Shown here in pieces: positions 1,219-11,484 of a DNA stretch of 11,484 bases (position 1 is the first letter of the stretch; each line of letters begins with the position of its first letter). Position numbers and translations under genes: made by a program. The notes under the pieces were generated by a model, which was given only the letters and a program-made list of their open reading frames with translations, ran no database searches and had not been told where the DNA came from. The stretch lies in the IMG/VR virus record IMGVR_UViG_2778261514_000009, one strand, 5' to 3'. The stretch is from a virus. Its lineage: Duplodnaviria > Heunggongvirae > Uroviricota > Caudoviricetes.

Positions 1219-1270
1219 TTTTTTTCGTGTTTTTTCAGTATGCACATACTGGATATGCGAACAGATACAA

Positions 1271-1320
1271 CGTGCAACAATGAGCAACAATGTGGAACAA
1301 CCACGAACAAGAGGCGAAAA
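1271..1320. repeat. Five tandem 10-bp repeats (consensus nnnGCAACAA) in the int-alpA intergenic region
   Basis: Read directly: cgtGCAACAA / tgaGCAACAA / tgtGGAACAA / ccacGAACAA / gagGCGAAAA at exact 10-bp phasing in an AT-rich spacer. Confidence 0.5.
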
Positions 1321-3940: not shown

Positions 3941-5691
3941 AACTGGCACCGAACGTAAAACAGCAGTCACGCGGCATAAAACACAAAGAAACAGAAGTCA
4001 TTATTTTTGCGGGTAGTGATGCCTGGTCACACGCGAAACAATGGCAGGAACATGATGCGCGTATGGCCGGAGATAATGAGCCTCCTGTGTGGCTTGGGGA
4101 GCAGCAGCTATCCGAACTGGATAATCTGCAAATTGTGCCGGAAGGCCGAAAATCAGCACGCATATACAGGGCCGGATATCTTGCGCCAGTAATGATAAAG
4201 GCGATTGGCCAGAAGCTGGCGGCGGCAGGCGTACAGGATGCAAATTTTTACCCTGATGGTATGCACGGTCAGAAGGTGGAGAACTGGCGCGAATATCTGG
4301 CCCGTGAGCGCCAGAATCTTTCTGATGGTCTGGTCATTGAGCTTCCGGTAAAGCAAAAGGCGCAACTTTCGCAGATGGCGGACAGTGAGCGCGCGCAGCT
4401 GCTTGCCGATCGCTTTGATGGCGTTTGCGTACATCCTGAAAGTGAAATCGTTCACGTATGGCGCGGCGGGGTATGGTGTCCGGTCAGCACAATGGAACTT
4501 AGCCGCGAAATGGTGGCGATCTATTCAGAGCACAGGGCCACTTTCAGCAAGCGCGTAATCAATAACGCCGTGGAAGCGTTAAAAGTTATTGCCGAACCAA
4601 TGGGCGAGCCGTCCGGCGATTTGCTGCCGTTCGCCAATGGTGCGCTTGACCTGAAAACGGGGGAATTTTCCCCGCACACGCCGGAGAACTGGATCACCAC
4701 GCACAACGGCATTGAGTACACGCCACCAGCACCAGGGGAGAACATCCGCGATAACGCGCCAAACTTTCATAAATGGCTTGAGCACGCAGCCGGAAAAGAC
4801 CCGCGCAAGATGATGCGTATATGTGCCGCGCTGTACATGATTATGGCGAACCGGTACGACTGGCAGATGTTTATTGAGGCCACCGGAGATGGCGGGAGCG
4901 GTAAAAGTACATTCACGCACATAGCCAGCCTTCTGGCAGGGAAACAGAACACGGTAAGCGCTGAAATGACGTCGCTTGATGATGCTGGTGGACGTGCGCA
5001 GGTTGTCGGGAGTCGTCTTATCGTCCTGGCTGACCAGCCGAAATATACAGGCGAAGGAACGGGCATCAAGAAAATCACGGGCGGTGACCCCGTGGAAATT
5101 AACCCGAAATACGAAAAGCGTTTCACGGCTGTAATCAGGGCGGTGGTGCTGGCGACCAACAATAACCCGATGATATTCACCGAACGGGCCGGAGGTGTGG
5201 CACGTCGTCGCGTGATTTTCCGTTTCGACAATATCGTCAGTGAGGCCGACAAAGACAGGGAGCTACCGGAAAAGATCGCGGCTGAAATCCCTGTCATTAT
5301 CCGCCGATTGCTGGCGAACTTTACCGACCCTGAGAAGGCACGGGCTTTACTACTGGAACAGCGTGACGGTGATGAAGCTCTGGCAATAAAGCAACAGACG
5401 GATCCGGTTATTGAGTTTTGCCAGTTCCTGAATTTTCTGGAGGAAGCACGCGGCCTGATGATGGGCGGCGGTGGCGATTCAGTGAAGTACACGACCAGAA
5501 ACAGCCTTTACCGCGTCTATCTGGCGTTTATGGCGTACGCAGGCAGGAGCAAACCGCTAAACGTAAATGACTTTGGCAAGGCTATGAAGCCAGCCGCGAA
5601 AGTTTACGGACATGAATATATTACGCGGAAAGTTAAGGGAGTAACGCAGACTAACGCAATAACAACAGACGAGTGCGACGCGTTTTTATAA
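3937..5691 (+). CDS. pri: Replication initiation primase/helicase (D5_N plus SF3-type P-loop NTPase; P4-family primase C-terminal region), 584 aa
   Basis: Walker A GDGGSGKST, the downstream hydrophobic strand with acidic residue (LIVLADQP) and the characteristic ...VEINPKYEKRFTAVIRAVVLATNNNP...RRRVIFRF block; followed directly by an iteron region, as in PICI pri-rep/ori modules. Confidence 0.88.
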   Translation: MKLAPNVKQQSRGIKHKETEVIIFAGSDAWSHAKQWQEHDARMAGDNEPPVWLGEQQLSELDNLQIVPEGRKSARIYRAGYLAPVMIKAIGQKLAAAGVQDANFYPDGMHGQKVENWREYLARERQNLSDGLVIELPVKQKAQLSQMADSERAQLLADRFDGVCVHPESEIVHVWRGGVWCPVSTMELSREMVAIYSEHRATFSKRVINNAVEALKVIAEPMGEPSGDLLPFANGALDLKTGEFSPHTPENWITTHNGIEYTPPAPGENIRDNAPNFHKWLEHAAGKDPRKMMRICAALYMIMANRYDWQMFIEATGDGGSGKSTFTHIASLLAGKQNTVSAEMTSLDDAGGRAQVVGSRLIVLADQPKYTGEGTGIKKITGGDPVEINPKYEKRFTAVIRAVVLATNNNPMIFTERAGGVARRRVIFRFDNIVSEADKDRELPEKIAAEIPVIIRRLLANFTDPEKARALLLEQRDGDEALAIKQQTDPVIEFCQFLNFLEEARGLMMGGGGDSVKYTTRNSLYRVYLAFMAYAGRSKPLNVNDFGKAMKPAAKVYGHEYITRKVKGVTQTNAITTDECDAFL

Positions 5692-5699
5692 TTTTTTGT

Positions 5700-5935
5700 A
5701 ATTGCTGTCTACCCTGTCTACCTGAGTAAAGAAAAATACATTTAATTCAGTGCATTAAGTTAGGTAGATAGCCTTTTTTTACTGTCTACCCACTATCTAC
5801 CCTCTCTACCTGATTTTACCTGAATCAGACAGGGAGGTAGACACGGGGTAGATAGTGGATAAAAGCACTCTACCCCGCTGAAAGCCGTGCCATTACTGGC
5901 ATGAGGGCCACTAAGGTAGATAAGGTAGACAAGGG
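5700..5935. repeat. Putative replication origin: about 11 iterons of GGTAGA(C/T)A in two inverted clusters around an AT-rich spacer
   Basis: Reverse-orientation copies (..GTCTACC..) at 5707, 5716, 5784, 5796, 5804, 5869; forward copies GGTAGATA/GGTAGACA at 5763, 5836, 5847, 5915, 5924; AT-rich stretch 5724-5760; sits immediately 3' of the primase gene. Confidence 0.6.
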
Positions 5936-5979
5936 GAGGCACAACTCAAAACTTTTTAAACGAGGGGGTAAAAATAAAT

Positions 5980-7550: not shown

Positions 7551-7757
7551 ATGGCTGAAGAGAAAAAAGGCGGTGTTTCGGTGTACATAAGCCCCGAAAT
7601 CGTGGAGGTGCTCAAGCAGCGCCACAAAAAAAACTATGAAGCTGGCGTTGCGGCTGGACTGGATCCGCTGATGACGCCGGAGCCGTCGATAGGTTCACTT
7701 GTGCGATCTTATTTACTTGCGGCGCTTGGGATGCACAAAAATTATGGGGGCGAATAA
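7551..7757 (+). CDS. Hypothetical small protein (68 aa) coupled to the major capsid gene
   Basis: ATG 7551 with GAGGAA upstream (the track's 7518 start lacks an SD); its stop overlaps the capsid gene start (TAATG). Confidence 0.5.
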   Translation: MAEEKKGGVSVYISPEIVEVLKQRHKKNYEAGVAAGLDPLMTPEPSIGSLVRSYLLAALGMHKNYGGE

Positions 7758-8812
7758 TGGCAGTCAAAGCAATAGCACTTAACACACACCAGCTTTTCGC
7801 GTACCTGAATCGCGAGGATATTGCGGAATTTAAATTTAGTCCGCTGTTTACCGCGCTGTTTTTCCCGAACGTGGCGACATTCAACACGCAGGACATCATG
7901 TTAGATAACCTGGATATTGAAGAAGTCACTATGTCGGCGTTTTGTTCGCCTATGGTTGGCAGCCAGGTTCAGCGCGATAAAGGGTACGAAACCAGCATTA
8001 TCCGCCCTGGCTACATGAAGCCAAAACACGAAATCGATCCATTAAAAACAATAATGCGCATGGCTGGAGAAGATCCGGCACAGCTTAACGATCCTACCTA
8101 CCGCCGTATGCGCCTGATTACTGGCAACATGCGCCGCCAGATAAATGCCATTAAGGCACGCGTTGAATGGCTGGCGGTGAATGCGGTAACGACCGGAAAA
8201 AACATCATTGAGGGCGAAGGCATAGAACGCTATGAAATCGACTGGAAGATACCGGAAAAAAACATCATAGAGCAGGCCGACGGTAAAAAATGGTCTGAGC
8301 AGGATAAAGACATACACGACCCAATATATGACATTGAACTATACGCAGATCAGGCAGGTTGCCCCGCCAACGTCATGATTATGGGCGTTGATGTATGGCG
8401 CATGTTACGCAGCTTTAAAAAATTCCGTGAACTGTACGATCTCTCCCGTGGTTCAGAATCCGCCGCAGAGCTGGCATGTAAAAACCTGGGCGAAGTGGTG
8501 AGCTTTAAAGGCTATCTTGGTGATCTGGCCCTTATCGTCTATTCCGGCAAATACACTGACAGCGACGGCACAGAAAAATATTTCCTTGAGCCTGATTTGC
8601 TTGTCCTGGGCAACACCAACAATAAAGGGCTGGTGGCCTATGGTGCGATTATGGATCAGGACGCAGTAAGAACGGGGGCAACGCAAAACATGTACTACCC
8701 GAAAAACTGGATTGAGGACGGAGATCCGGCGATTGAGTACGTGCAGACGCACAGCGCACCGCAGCCGGTTCCGGCAGATATTCGCAAATTTGTTACTGTC
8801 AAAATTGCTTAA
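7757..8812 (+). CDS. Major capsid protein, lambda gpE family (351 aa)
   Basis: Alignable along its length with lambda gpE as recalled: FKFSPLF, PGYMKPKHEIDP, EDPAQLNDPTYRRMR, WSEQDKDIHDP..DIELYA, VSFKGYLGDLALIVYSGKY, LVLGNTNNKGLVAYGAIMD, YYPKNWIEDGDPAIEY..HSAP. Confidence 0.9.
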   Translation: MAVKAIALNTHQLFAYLNREDIAEFKFSPLFTALFFPNVATFNTQDIMLDNLDIEEVTMSAFCSPMVGSQVQRDKGYETSIIRPGYMKPKHEIDPLKTIMRMAGEDPAQLNDPTYRRMRLITGNMRRQINAIKARVEWLAVNAVTTGKNIIEGEGIERYEIDWKIPEKNIIEQADGKKWSEQDKDIHDPIYDIELYADQAGCPANVMIMGVDVWRMLRSFKKFRELYDLSRGSESAAELACKNLGEVVSFKGYLGDLALIVYSGKYTDSDGTEKYFLEPDLLVLGNTNNKGLVAYGAIMDQDAVRTGATQNMYYPKNWIEDGDPAIEYVQTHSAPQPVPADIRKFVTVKIA

Positions 8813-8823
8813 CGGGGGATTCT

Positions 8824-9159
8824 ATGGACACTCCATACATTGAGTTATTTGCAGGCAGTCAGCAGGTCGCCACGACGCTGGTACATTTTGCCGCTGATGC
8901 TGGCGTTATTCAGGAATTTACCCCGCTGATGCTGGCGGACAATGGCGAGTTTAAGCCGTGGGATGGTCAGGAATCTGGCAAGGCTGTTTATCTGACTTCG
9001 TATCCTGTGGACACGTCAAAGCAGAAATCAGCACAGTGTTACAAGACGGGGATATTCAATATTGCCGCCGTTAACTGGCCTGAGAGCGTCGACACCGATG
9101 CGAAAAAATGCGCCGCCTTTGCGGGTTCCGGCGTATCCGTTCAGCCGCTGGCCCGATAA
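8824..9159 (+). CDS. Head decoration protein, lambda gpD-like (111 aa)
   Basis: Core matches lambda gpD as recalled (TPLMLADNGEFKPWDG vs TPLMLDTSSRKLVAWDG; CYKTGIFNIAAVNWPE vs FYKSGTFRYEDVLWPE; KKCAAFAGSGVSV vs KKRTAFAGTAISIV); SD GGGGG. Confidence 0.75.
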   Translation: MDTPYIELFAGSQQVATTLVHFAADAGVIQEFTPLMLADNGEFKPWDGQESGKAVYLTSYPVDTSKQKSAQCYKTGIFNIAAVNWPESVDTDAKKCAAFAGSGVSVQPLAR

Positions 9160-9171
9160 GCAGGGGGAACG

Positions 9172-9585
9172 ATGGCAACGAATGAAAGCATCATGACGCT
9201 ACCGCTGGCGAGTAAATTTAAAGCCGAAGCGCGGGCAATGGCTGACAGAGGTTTATCAACCTATGAGGCCGTATATCAACTAAACAAACTGGAAGAGCAG
9301 GACAAGCCGCGCGCTGATGCGATTATGGCGCTTCATGAGCATAAAGACTATCAGCCGCTGTTACGTGCAATGGCAAACGTGCCATGTATTAGCGTCGATA
9401 ATGCTCGTGAAATCCTGAACATGACCATAGAGCAGGAGCGCCCAAAGGTTGCACCAGAGCTTACCGCAGCCTTTGAAAACTTTATGGACATGCACAGCCC
9501 GCAAGCCGTATCAGCTGGCATGGCATACGATGGCAGAAACCAGGGCGATGACGGCGACATCGATCGCATACTGAAAACCATCTGA
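9172..9585 (+). CDS. Hypothetical protein (137 aa), last gene of the capsid operon
   Basis: SD AGGGGGAA 4 nt upstream; followed by a terminator; no family recognised. Confidence 0.5.
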   Translation: MATNESIMTLPLASKFKAEARAMADRGLSTYEAVYQLNKLEEQDKPRADAIMALHEHKDYQPLLRAMANVPCISVDNAREILNMTIEQERPKVAPELTAAFENFMDMHSPQAVSAGMAYDGRNQGDDGDIDRILKTI

Positions 9586-9589
9586 GACA

Positions 9590-9614
9590 AGGCCGGAGAA
9601 ATCCGGCTTTTTTT
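9590..9614 (+). terminator. Rho-independent terminator (GCCGGA-gaaa-TCCGGC plus T7) abutting cosQ
   Basis: Read directly; same hairpin family as the terminators at 6955 and 7319. Confidence 0.6.
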
Positions 9615-9790
9615 ACGGGTCCTTTCCGGCATATGGACCCGTTACGGGGCGGCGACCTCGCGGTTTTTCGCTATTTATGAGCCTTTTCAGGGGGGGGGTG
9701 GTGGTTTTGTTGTTTGCTCTATCTTTATGAATGAAAAGGGAAAGATGCAAACAATACACCAACCTGAAGCAGTAATTAAGTTGGTGTATT
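9615..9790 (+). other. Lambda-type cos site (copy A): cosQ-like ACGGGTCCTTTCCGG, cosN with 12-nt cohesive end GGGCGGCGACCT (9647-9658), then a divergent cosB-like region
   Basis: ACGGGTCCTTTCCGG-N11-GTTACGGGGCGGCGACCTCGCGGTTTTTCGCTATTTATGA matches the phage lambda cos junction as recalled, with the same cosQ-cosN spacing; downstream sequence departs from lambda cosB and carries a G9 run and the inverted repeat ATACACCAAC...GTTGGTGTAT. Confidence 0.7.
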
Positions 9791-9791
9791 A

Positions 9792-10334
9792 ATGAAATCG
9801 CACCTGATGAACAAAAAAAACATGGCGAAAAGCTGCCGTGTAAGTGCGACAGCGTTCGACAAGTGGGGAGTGACTCCCGTTGAACGTAAAGGCCGTGAGG
9901 CGTTTTACGATGTTGCCAGCGTGATAGACAATAGGGTTAACAATGCAATTAGCCAGCTTACAAACGACAAAGGCGATATTGATGATGATGAACTCTTACG
10001 AGTCAGGATCAGATTACTGACAGCACAGGCGGAGGCGCAGGAACTTAAAAACGAGCGCGATCGCGGTGACGTGATTGATACTGAGTTTTGCCTGTACGCG
10101 CTTTCAAAGCTGGCGAGTCAGATTTCATCAATCATGGACAGCCTCCCGCTTACTATGCAAAGGAGCTTCCCACAGATTACCCACGCCATGCTGGATAGGC
10201 TTAAAAGGGAAGTGGTTAAAGCCTGTAATGCCAGTGCCAGAGTTGCCGACAACCTCCCACAGATACTGGCTGATTACTTGAAAGAAACAACCGGAAACGT
10301 ACCGGAAAAGTTGCTACAGAAGAAAGGCGAGTAA
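9792..10334 (+). CDS. terS: Terminase small subunit, lambda Nu1 family (180 aa; start possibly at 9807)
   Basis: C-terminal two-thirds aligns with lambda Nu1 as recalled (RLLTAQAEAQELKNERD / LTRAQADAQELKNARD; FCLYALSKLASQISSIMDSLPL / FCTFVLSRIAGEIASILDGLPL; LKREVVKACN / LKRDIIKAMN); N-terminus NKKN... parallels Nu1 MEVNKKQ... HTH region; lies directly downstream of cos as in lambda. Confidence 0.8.
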   Translation: MKSHLMNKKNMAKSCRVSATAFDKWGVTPVERKGREAFYDVASVIDNRVNNAISQLTNDKGDIDDDELLRVRIRLLTAQAEAQELKNERDRGDVIDTEFCLYALSKLASQISSIMDSLPLTMQRSFPQITHAMLDRLKREVVKACNASARVADNLPQILADYLKETTGNVPEKLLQKKGE

Positions 10335-10339
10335 CAGAC

Positions 10340-10556
10340 GCGCAATTATTGAACAAAACTGAGAAACGACATGAAAGCGTCATAAATCGCCATTTTAGAT
10401 GATTACCGTGTCGTTTCTTTTTATTGTGTATCTATTTAAAAACAAATAGTTATGTTCGAGAAGTACCGACATGCTTTTTCCAGAAAAATTTTCATAAACA
10501 GATAAAAACCGCGAGGTCGCCGCCCCGTAACGGGCCATAATTCCAGGAAGGACCCG
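10340..10556 (-). other. Second, inverted cos module (copy B): cosQ-like, cosN (GGGCGGCGACCT on minus strand at 10514-10525) and a lambda-like cosB with I1-like and R-like elements
   Basis: Reverse complement of 10500-10556 reads CGGGTCCTTCCTGGAATTATGGCCCGTTACGGGGCGGCGACCTCGCGGTTTTTATCTGTTTATGAAAATTTTTCTGG, close to copy A and to the lambda left end; further along, CGAACATAACTATTTGTTTTTAAATA resembles the lambda I1 region; inverted CGTTTCT elements at 10363-10372 and 10409-10418. Confidence 0.6.
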
Positions 10557-10589
10557 ACGACACCAGACTATCAGAGCGATGGGGGCACA

Positions 10590-10877
10590 ATGACAGAAGC
10601 CGAACTACTGGGATTAATCCGCCGCGTTACCGGAATCAGCCAGCAGCATGACGAACAGGCCACGCAGCCGGACAGCGTGACCGCCGAAAATTACGCGCGT
10701 GTGGTTGCTGAGGTGATGCGCCGTGATGGTATCCAGCTTAATGATGTGGATATGCGCAACATAGGATCCGCGTTCTTGAAATGCTGGCCTACAATCGCCG
10801 CGTGGCACTGTATCGGGAAACGGAGAAAATTACGTACCACTGGAAGAAGCCGGAGCGGTTACGGCGTTAACGAGTAG
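10590..10877 (+). CDS. Hypothetical protein (95 aa), weakly supported
   Basis: ORF with a G-rich SD-like sequence upstream; no family recognised; could be non-coding. Confidence 0.3.
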   Translation: MTEAELLGLIRRVTGISQQHDEQATQPDSVTAENYARVVAEVMRRDGIQLNDVDMRNIGSAFLKCWPTIAAWHCIGKRRKLRTTGRSRSGYGVNE

Positions 10878-10886
10878 CGACATACC

Positions 10887-10921
10887 GTGACGGAGAGTGA
10901 CAACCAGTGACACGCCGTGAC
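10887..10921. repeat. Four GTGAC motifs at exact 10-bp phasing; candidate arm-type recombinase or RDF binding sites near the island right end
   Basis: cGTGACggag aGTGACaacc aGTGACacgc cGTGACaaaa; followed by GGTCAT direct and inverted repeats (11013-11041) and a GGTGTAGTCA direct repeat (about 11240-11261). Confidence 0.35.
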
Positions 10922-11325
10922 AAAAGACGGTTTAACCGTTAATTAAAAATTGACGGGATTTTGTGCTTTCCGGACGACGTGACCAACGTCATTTTTTAGC
11001 GAAAAGTTCTGATTAAGGTCATTGTCTGAATGGTCATAATGACCACTCCTACAAAACAGGTAAAGCCCACCAGCCTGATTAACAGTTAACCGGAAAAAAA
11101 TCCGGTAGCCCCGTTATGGGGATCCCCATATCAACATTAACGCCCCTCATGAATTAGCGCGCTTCCCCCTGGAAAGATGACCCGCCTGTATATTTCTTGT
11201 GTCTATTTGTTCCACGTTGTTTCATACAGTGCACCGAACGGTGTAGTCACTGGTGTAGTCATTTTGCGATTTATGGCACTTTTTGTAGTGAAAATTATTT
11301 AATTAAATCAATGCGTTAAGTGAAA

Positions 11326-11472
11326 TTAGTTATATATAACAGCAATAAATAATGCGAGAATAAACGGCACGATGATCTCGGCGGCAAAACGGATACCGCA
11401 GAGAATAATGACCAGCATTCCCAACATAATGACGATTTTTAGGCCATTGAGCGTGATGATCGGCTTTGCCAT
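11326..11472 (-). pseudogene. Truncated 5' fragment of a host inner-membrane protein gene (N-terminus resembles TqsA/YdgG), ending in an island-derived stop; marks the probable right junction of the island
   Basis: Minus-strand translation from the window end: [52 protein letters not shown]; hydrophobic TM-like N-terminus matching my recollection of TqsA up to ...ALFIAV, then divergence and stop; flanking sequence is AT-rich and repeat-rich. Confidence 0.45.
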
Positions 11473-11484
11473 GCTTGTCCCCAT

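Follow-up and report, generated by a model that had tools for sequence, protein, structure and literature searches.

The stretch of DNA analysed here (11,484 nucleotides; referred to as the window) is occupied by a phage-inducible chromosomal island (PICI) of ~11 kb sitting in the tqsA gene and is 100% identical to a segment of E. coli STEC17-183 (L001:5122-16605). In the STEC17-183 genome, the island is flanked by two tqsA fragments, beyond which lie pntB at one end and ydgV/mdtJ at the other end. Annotation and matches to Pfam and PHROG revealed the gene layout of a Gram-negative PICI, with int, alpA and, ahead of an iteron origin, a pri-rep gene; transcription is rightward and the length is ~11 kb. 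The N-terminal domain of the integrase matched PF13356 (Arm-DNA-bind_3; E = 1.4e-18, residues 4-91). Further genes specify AlpA, which is encoded beside int, an Icd-like protein, a DUF4222 protein, a D5-type primase, an SSB, PerC, a capsid protein of the lambda E type, a decoration protein of the D type and a Nu1-type small terminase of 180 aa. The landmarks of the island body are as follows.

1-1218: integrase, a P4-family tyrosine recombinase with Arm-DNA-bind_3 and Phage_integrase domains
5699-5936: island origin with TCTACC/GGTAGA iterons, after the primase gene
10514-10525: lambda-type cosN, AGGTCGCCGCCC, with the cosB side pointing left
10590-10877, plus strand: last gene, of the phrog_1561 family, normally 93 aa and frameshifted in this copy

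The last gene is flagged by RefSeq as frameshifted, and its PHROG match spans residues 1-64 only. Comparison with the intact homologue of an O157 island (L003) placed the end of the intact frame at a stop codon at 10868-10870. This gene is also the last one in eight relatives of the island located at five sites (tqsA, phoQ, clpS, yifB and yejO), and in these relatives it is followed by 0.5 to 0.9 kb of noncoding DNA consisting of exchangeable blocks. A homologue search with the 93-aa protein returned 909 matches, the 120 listed of these 909 all being at least 86% identical, and a scan of genome contigs for relatives of the gene returned a single Shigella locus. The AlphaFold model of the 93-aa protein was of moderate confidence (pLDDT of 66.7) and consisted of three helices; a Foldseek search of the PDB with this model gave no match at E <= 0.001. 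Beyond the last gene, the right end of the window contains a succession of short repeats leading up to the host chromosome, and these are listed here together with the corresponding core at the left end.

10877-10921, plus strand: GTGAC array of five units in exact 10-bp phase, outside the integrase arm; the first unit is a degenerate GCGAC at 10877
10927-10996, plus strand: terminator-like hairpins ending the rightward operon, from a terminator scan and RNA folds, conserved in relatives L004-L006
11017-11045: GGTCAT direct repeat and 15-bp palindrome TGGTCATAATGACCA (11031-11045), conserved in relatives
11060-11106: conserved block starting with CCCACCAGCC and including the hairpin ACCGG-A7-TCCGGT (11089-11106), common to elements with different integrases
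11115-11130: 16-bp palindrome TATGGGGATCCCCATA, containing GATC, conserved
11197-11223, plus strand: three TTGTnnC units in exact 10-bp phase (starts at 11197, 11207 and 11217), candidate AlpA sites
11240-11249 and 11252-11261, plus strand: GGTGTAGTCA tandem in 12-bp phase, candidate integrase arm-type site
11306-11318, plus strand: IHF consensus AATCAATGCGTTA, 18 bp from the core in a stretch of 23% GC
11326-11472, minus strand: 5' fragment of tqsA, with 45 native codons, followed by IYN from the junction and by a stop (11326-11328)
11336-11344: attR core ATAACAGCA, where the crossover takes place; attL, attB and attP have the identical sequence
L001:4926-4934: attL core ATAACAGCA, 187 bp upstream of window position 1

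Alignment of the empty site of K-12 with the left and right junctions of the island detected a 9-bp identity, ATAACAGCA. An earlier note on this DNA had proposed a probable attR at the right end, terminating at 11335, and had set comparison with an island-free strain as a check beforehand. The K-12 empty site placed the junction at the 9-bp core at 11336-11344, with host sequence beginning exactly at 11336 and with 11335 being the last element-specific base. A matching core had also been anticipated upstream of int, beyond the start of the window, and was found there. When 5426 complete E. coli genomes were searched, the host match started exactly at window position 11336 in 5423 genomes; the arm, core and 5' end of tqsA occurred together in 246 of the 5426, and tqsA was uninterrupted across the site in 5171.

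The joined form of the two ends was represented by a metagenomic contig from IMG/VR (L036). This contig is circular, with 11,098 nt and identical 119-nt ends, corresponding to a circular form of ~10,979 bp, and holds the P arm, ATAACAGCA and the P' arm contiguously, as in the predicted attP junction, the sequence of which includes TTATATATAACAGCATTTTATC. It is 99.6 to 99.7% identical to the attP reconstructed by joining both junctions, and the stretch flanking the core differs from the predicted attP by one base. The circularity of L036 could stem from concatemers, either replicating or packaged, instead of from a simple excised circle, with attP being present in either case. The circular attP-containing contig and the lambda-type cosN at 10514-10525 are indirect indications of a possible helper-dependent excision, replication and packaging.

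Only the truncation of tqsA speaks for the junction being the scar of a deletion or rearrangement and not a product of site-specific integration. This explanation has a negligible probability, being refuted by the 9-bp repeat that both island ends share, the recurrence of the same junction in 246 genomes, the intact empty site in 5171 genomes and the existence of a circular attP contig. The P4-family tyrosine integrase recombined the attP of the island with a site inside tqsA, with the exchange taking place within the 9-bp ATAACAGCA. The region under study was, overall, interpreted as comprising the right end of a PICI of the EcCI042 type, a putative helper-phage-dependent satellite, and the junction of this island with the host chromosome, and we assign this interpretation a probability of about 0.93.

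The terminal ORF of the window had been described as a TqsA-like N-terminus cut off by a stop codon. This minus-strand ORF matched tqsA, and all of the matching genomes have it annotated as a truncated AI-2 transporter; its translation runs to ...FIAV and then continues with IYN and a stop. It is identical to K-12 tqsA at the nucleotide level from 11336 to all but the last two bases of the window. The true start of tqsA is at 11472, with an upstream ATG at 11484 being due to one base difference from K-12. The insertion is at codon 46 of ~344, with the core spanning codons 43-46, and the suggestion that the element had integrated into the 5' part of a protein-coding gene, and not into a tRNA gene, was therefore correct. 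At attL, the tqsA frame is directly preceded by TGA and TAA, and the next in-frame ATG is the native Met55. As these stop codons come directly after the attL core, tqsA is split and not rebuilt by the island. The remainder of the gene lies beyond attL, and precise excision would restore it. The gene for the AI-2 exporter is split by this satellite family in ~4.5% of complete E. coli genomes. For annotation, the value of this finding is that the truncated "pheromone autoinducer 2 transporter" pseudogenes of RefSeq are the attR and attL halves of one gene.

The 456 bp from 10880 to 11335 have a GC content of 0.419, compared to 0.488 for the window, and this value falls to 0.23 in 11262-11335, in agreement with the description of the right end as AT rich. 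Helically phased short repeats are typical for directionality factors, such as lambda Xis, L5 Xis and P2 Cox. The presence of repeats of this type, and the location of all of the repeats between the last ORF and the core, would fit with the whole 456 bp being a single long attP arm in which the GTGAC units, the GGTCAT repeats, the palindromes and GGTGTAGTCA are all sites for Int, Xis or IHF. Comparison with other islands argued against such an arrangement. In BLAST searches of the 5426 genomes, 11036-11317 shared 91% identity with the right-hand end of a PICI of O157:H7 that forms capsids, is located at phoQ and has an integrase of about the same length and the same AlpA, while 10886-11105 was 95% identical to a PICI located between cspD and clpS, where the integrase is different. 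The GTGAC array and the sequence up to ~11105 travel with the last PICI gene alongside other integrases and target sites (occurring with the other integrases and cores of the clpS, yifB and yejO sites) and are absent from an O157 island having the same arm and AlpA. Moreover, the distance between the array and the arm tandem varies among relatives from 353 to 671 bp, terminator-like hairpins lie between the array and the arm, and the P' arm contains no equivalent of the GTGAC units. A single long arm is, hence, very improbable.

The 456 bp are instead a mosaic and not one attachment arm. There are two cassettes: 10877-10996, which is the tail of the rightward operon, and ~11197-11335, which is the P arm. 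The proposal in the earlier note that the repeats of this region are parts of attR was, therefore, borne out for ~11197-11335 but not for the GTGAC array and the sequence up to ~11105, as the latter occur with other integrases. This dissection distinguishes the integrase arm proper, the right third of the region, from an independently moving cassette.

The true P arm is restricted to ~11197-11335, and this segment behaves as the arm of the integrase. It consists, in order, of the three TTGTnnC units, the GGTGTAGTCA tandem, an AT-rich spacer containing the IHF consensus, and a short segment next to the core. The IHF consensus pattern, WATCAANNNNTTR, had one match in the entire window, at 11306-11318, and the ~18 bp adjoining the core vary with the target site. 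A direct repeat noticed in the initial reading of the window corresponded to the copies of GGTGTAGTCA at 11240 and 11252. The P' arm, before int, mirrors the P arm, with TTGTnnC at L001:5020, 5030 and 5040 and GGTGTAGTCA at 5063 and 5075, and the composite of TTGTnnC and GGTGTAGTCA has the same orientation in both arms. Exact copies of GGTGTAGTCA numbered four in 32.6 kb, with two in each arm and none elsewhere. Five more TTGTnnC units, again in 10-bp phase but inverted, were located at 1270-1310, in the interval separating int from alpA.

An exact-pattern scan of IMG/VR detected 107 occurrences of the GGTGTAGTCA tandem, a number that includes loci already in the comparison and in which the invariance of the tandem is by construction, since the loci were collected with an exact-match pattern. 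In 19 of the 107, the tandem was just upstream of a long ORF, in the same manner as the P' tandem before int, and most of the others were at the right ends of islands. In two of the loci (L059 and L071), the flanks are unrelated.

As TTGTnnC is found in each arm and again in the intergenic regulatory region, these units are candidate sites for AlpA, acting as a Vis-like directionality factor or regulator. Position and the analogy with lambda and P4 point to GGTGTAGTCA as a candidate arm-type site of the integrase. On the model of a lambda-type attP, the N-terminal domain of the integrase would bind one set of repeats and AlpA, with bending of the DNA by IHF, the other, leading to formation of an intasome. 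The AlpA protein of E. coli PICIs has been reported to be an inducer of the island cycle and not a plain excisionase (Fillol-Salom et al. 2018). A tandem of GGTGTAGTYA was reported as the "att core" of island EcCIDI14; this tandem is more likely to be an arm-type site, present in both arms.

Between the last gene and the P arm, the best terminator candidate was a stem at 10976-10990 followed by TTTTTT, and two relatives (L007 and L009) have a stronger hairpin with a T run. The RNA folds were mildly more stable than those of shuffled sequences (z = -1.4 to -2.8). In a promoter scan, neither 10400-11484 nor the P' arm contained a sigma-70-like promoter. The direct and inverted GGTCAT repeats noted previously were present, with direct copies at 11017 and 11032 and inverted ones at 11039 and 11177; a pair of these four forms TGGTCATAATGACCA. 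The window contains 11 copies of GGTCAT compared to 4.7 expected, and four of these are in 10880-11335. TGGTCATAATGACCA was retained in relatives with differing flanks, and its variants, the symmetric TGGTGATAATCACCA and also TGGTGGAAATCACCA, retain dyad symmetry, which is compatible with a hairpin and with a protein site alike. The 16-bp palindrome had likewise been recognized in the initial reading, although its position, given there as 11114-11129, was off by one base. TATGGGGATCCCCATA is the sole perfect 16-bp palindrome in the window and is kept in most relatives, often at the boundary of exchangeable blocks. In relative L008, this palindrome differs by two compensatory changes and by two that create G-T pairs, and in four other variants a pair is broken, a pattern compatible with a hairpin as well as with a dimer-binding site.

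The four GTGAC units at 10-bp phasing were present as initially described, starting at 10887, 10897, 10907 and 10917, and are accompanied by the fifth, degenerate unit (GCGAC). None of 200 dinucleotide-preserving shuffles of the window reached a match to the four-unit pattern. Arrays in relatives had four or five units and the pentamers were invariant, except for the GCGAC of the window's own variant, while the spacers exhibited point differences and whole 10-bp units were gained or lost. In 13 distinct variants, the array was located either immediately after the phrog_1561 gene or after inserted hairpin modules following this gene. The O157 island L003 had the phrog_1561 gene, the arm and AlpA, with the array being absent. 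The variable distance to the arm and the absence from the O157 island indicated that the array does not behave as part of a recombination site. A BLAST search of 50,697 phage records with 10860-11140 produced one marginal 60-nt match.

A number of roles for the array were considered and rejected. The array shares GTCAC with GGTGTAGTCAC, as might be the case for an Int arm site, yet relatives with the arm site GGTGTAGTTA keep the array. It is not the island's own origin, as the latter has TCTACC iterons and is located downstream of the primase gene, and the array is found in islands with three different replication genes. A contribution to cos was discarded because cosN is at 10514-10525 with the cosB side facing leftward.

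An exact-pattern scan of IMG/VR for four GTGAC units at 10-bp spacing detected 78 distinct arrays in unrelated sequences. All 49 of the arrays located inside ORFs of at least 150 aa were antisense to the ORF, and the ORFs hosting these arrays mostly specify phage replication-initiation or replisome-organizer proteins (phrog_3729 for 20 and phrog_1408 for 14 of the 49, among others). Gp36 of Escherichia phage Tritos has two GTGAC clusters, and its N-terminal coding region was present in 2186 of the 5426 E. coli genomes (~40%). The island array, with at least four GTGAC/GTCAC units at 10- to 11-bp phase, resembles the origins of replisome organizers in its arrangement. These findings, and the near invariance of the PICI pentamers against a background of varying spacers and of 10-bp units that come and go, are consistent with the array being made up of orphan iterons from a replisome-organizer origin, which may recruit the initiator of a resident or helper phage to form a second origin or may titrate this initiator and so hinder the helper. 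If the array were a decoy or second origin of this type, it would represent a novel mechanism by which a satellite links itself to the replication of its helper or disturbs it.

Several observations weigh against a role as phage iterons. The array is intergenic rather than antisense inside an initiator gene, and there is no flanking homology to any initiator gene, with tblastn of the initiator against the window giving chance-level matches only. No second iteron cluster was found ~250 to 300 bp away, such that the window has one cluster compared to two in the phage examples. At the position preceding the pentamer, A predominates in the island and C in the E. coli phages. Furthermore, the island has its own origin, with the TCTACC iterons at 5699-5936; unrelated proteins can share a 5-bp motif; and a literature search on GTGAC iterons found no support. 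This role for the array was, on balance, considered unlikely.

Another possibility is that the array is bound by a protein of the island, such as the phrog_1561 product, or is an RNA element in the 3' untranslated region of the last transcript. The position of the array in the 13 variants, right after the phrog_1561 gene or its hairpin modules, argues for such a function, as does its location upstream of the terminator-like hairpins, where it would be transcribed. Both forms of this explanation have to contend with the presence of the gene without the array in the O157 island L003. For a protein-binding site, the frameshift of the gene in the window, where the array is intact, is a further difficulty, and the moderately confident model of the 93-aa protein (pLDDT of 66.7), which had no significant structural match, showed no DNA-binding fold. 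For an RNA element, an Rfam scan of the whole window returned nothing in 10880-11484 at E <= 1. Attribution of the array to an island protein or to a 3' untranslated element is doubtful and was judged to be about as likely as binding by a phage initiator.

The attachment site, core and target gene of this island are already known, so that the present findings on these points are correct and confirmatory. EcCI042 (FN554766.1, 1832521-1843554; 11 kb) and EcCIK1516 are listed with the core ATAACAGCA and tqsA as the att gene in Table S1 of Fillol-Salom et al. 2018 (ISME J). Disruption of tqsA, among other core genes, by prophage integration was described by Bobay et al. 2013, and tqsA is among the candidate cases of regulated gene integrity of Mageeney et al. 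2020.

In comparison with known systems, the GTGAC array shares with the iterons of replisome organizers of the Tritos gp36 type (phrog_3729 and phrog_1408) the presence of four to six GTGAC units at 10- to 11-bp spacing with variable spacers, but differs in being an intergenic, single cluster located after the last gene with no initiator gene alongside. As in the elements associated with regulated gene integrity (Bobay et al. 2013; Mageeney et al. 2020), the host gene is split without restoration, in this case at codon 46; a difference is that there was no evidence here for excision acting as a switch of tqsA expression. The attachment region is similar to a lambda-type attP and to the Int-Vis system of P4 in having an arm-binding tyrosine integrase, repeats in each of the two arms, an AT-rich core region adjoined by an IHF consensus, and a gene of the AlpA/Vis family by int. 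It is distinguished from a lambda-type attP by both arms carrying the same composite, three phased TTGTnnC units and a tandem 10-mer, in the same orientation. Relative to EcCI042 of E. coli 042, to which it is closely related as a mosaic, the present island has a D5-type primase in place of a RepA-type helicase, the 180-aa Nu1-like small terminase in place of a 144-aa protein, and a frameshifted last gene, and its integrase is of identical length but is a different RefSeq protein. The two islands nevertheless have the same target and core, right ends that are 99.5% identical, the same RefSeq AlpA, and similar capsid and decoration genes.

Two kinds of repeat in the att arms were matched to sequences elsewhere, one inside the island and one in a published description. 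The features concerned, and the others treated here, are as follows (window coordinates unless marked L001, the E. coli STEC17-183 locus identical to the window).

L001:4940-5122, minus strand: RefSeq hypothetical protein of 60 aa, overlapping window position 1
1270-1316, minus strand: array of five TTGTnnC units spaced exactly 10 bp apart, in the interval from the int stop to alpA
5699-5936: island replication origin, directly 3' of the primase gene
7757-10334: the island's own genes for a lambda E-type capsid protein, a D-type decoration protein, a Nu1-type small terminase (180 aa) and a 137-aa protein
10335-10560: cos site of the lambda type, comprising cosN, its flanks and R-type repeats
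10514-10525: lambda-type cosN, AGGTCGCCGCCC, the reverse complement of GGGCGGCGACCT
10590-10877: frameshifted phrog_1561 gene, the last of the island (relatives encode 93 aa)

The TTGTnnC motif of 1270-1316 was also present three times in each att arm; together these sites may constitute a common AlpA/Vis-type binding array, a candidate that would tie recombination to regulation. The 'att core' published for the E. coli PICI EcCIDI14 is CGGTGTAGTTAATGGTGTAGTTAATT (Fillol-Salom 2018, Table S1), which is the arm tandem found in both arms of the present island family (compare window 11240-11261 and L001:5063-5084). The published core is probably an arm-type site and not the crossover core.

Two points concern annotation at the island ends. 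The 60-aa RefSeq ORF begins within the int start, crosses the P' arm and ends at the attL core, and is probably spurious. At the other end, the annotated tqsA start is 11472, and an ATG at 11484, due to a single base difference from K-12 (CCCCAT versus CCCCGT), adds four codons to the terminal ORF (window 11472-11484).

The frameshift in phrog_1561 falls after residue 58, inside the 64 residues matching the family profile, and the GTGAC array downstream of this gene is intact. Three to five repeats of the last gene's 3' end (GCGGTAACTnnnTGATATTyyCG) were present in related islands (L003:13445-13900, in the O157:H7 island at phoQ; L005:3270-3520; L006:2195-2495), and behind each copy lies a short perfect hairpin that differs from copy to copy. 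These copies and hairpins form a modular array extending from the last gene to the GTGAC array or the arm.

Among the IMG/VR loci, GTCAC repeats with 10- to 11-bp spacing were detected inside phage replisome-organizer or replication-initiation genes of many unrelated contigs (L104 to L219, e.g., L192:5387-6433; also L220:1507-2577). They were mostly arranged as two clusters separated by ∼290 bp, and their amino acid footprint, VT/SR/H, was visible in the alignment consensus. A second type of GTGAC array, consisting of 3 to >6 copies of identical 10-bp tandem units (CGGTGACATT / CGGTGACAAA), was observed in L191, L195, L216, L138 and related loci, immediately upstream of the portal start codon, between a 511-aa ORF and the portal gene.

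The flanks of the window cosN resemble the lambda left end. R-type repeats similar to GAAACGACA lie between cosN and the small-terminase stop, indicating that the cosB side faces left. The 137-aa protein has weak similarity to the C terminus of a head maturation protease (scaffold-like); portal and large terminase genes were absent from the island gene set. EcCI042 differs in encoding a 144-aa protein in the position of the terminase-like gene.

An origin-like structure was observed between attR and the last gene of the yifB-site island (L007:2730-2900), in the order three copies of GCGGGTTA, an AT-rich stretch and three copies of TAACCCGC. The window origin contains approximately six direct TCTACC-type iterons and approximately six inverted GGTAGA copies, arranged on either side of an AT-rich stretch, a layout matching that described for PICI origins.
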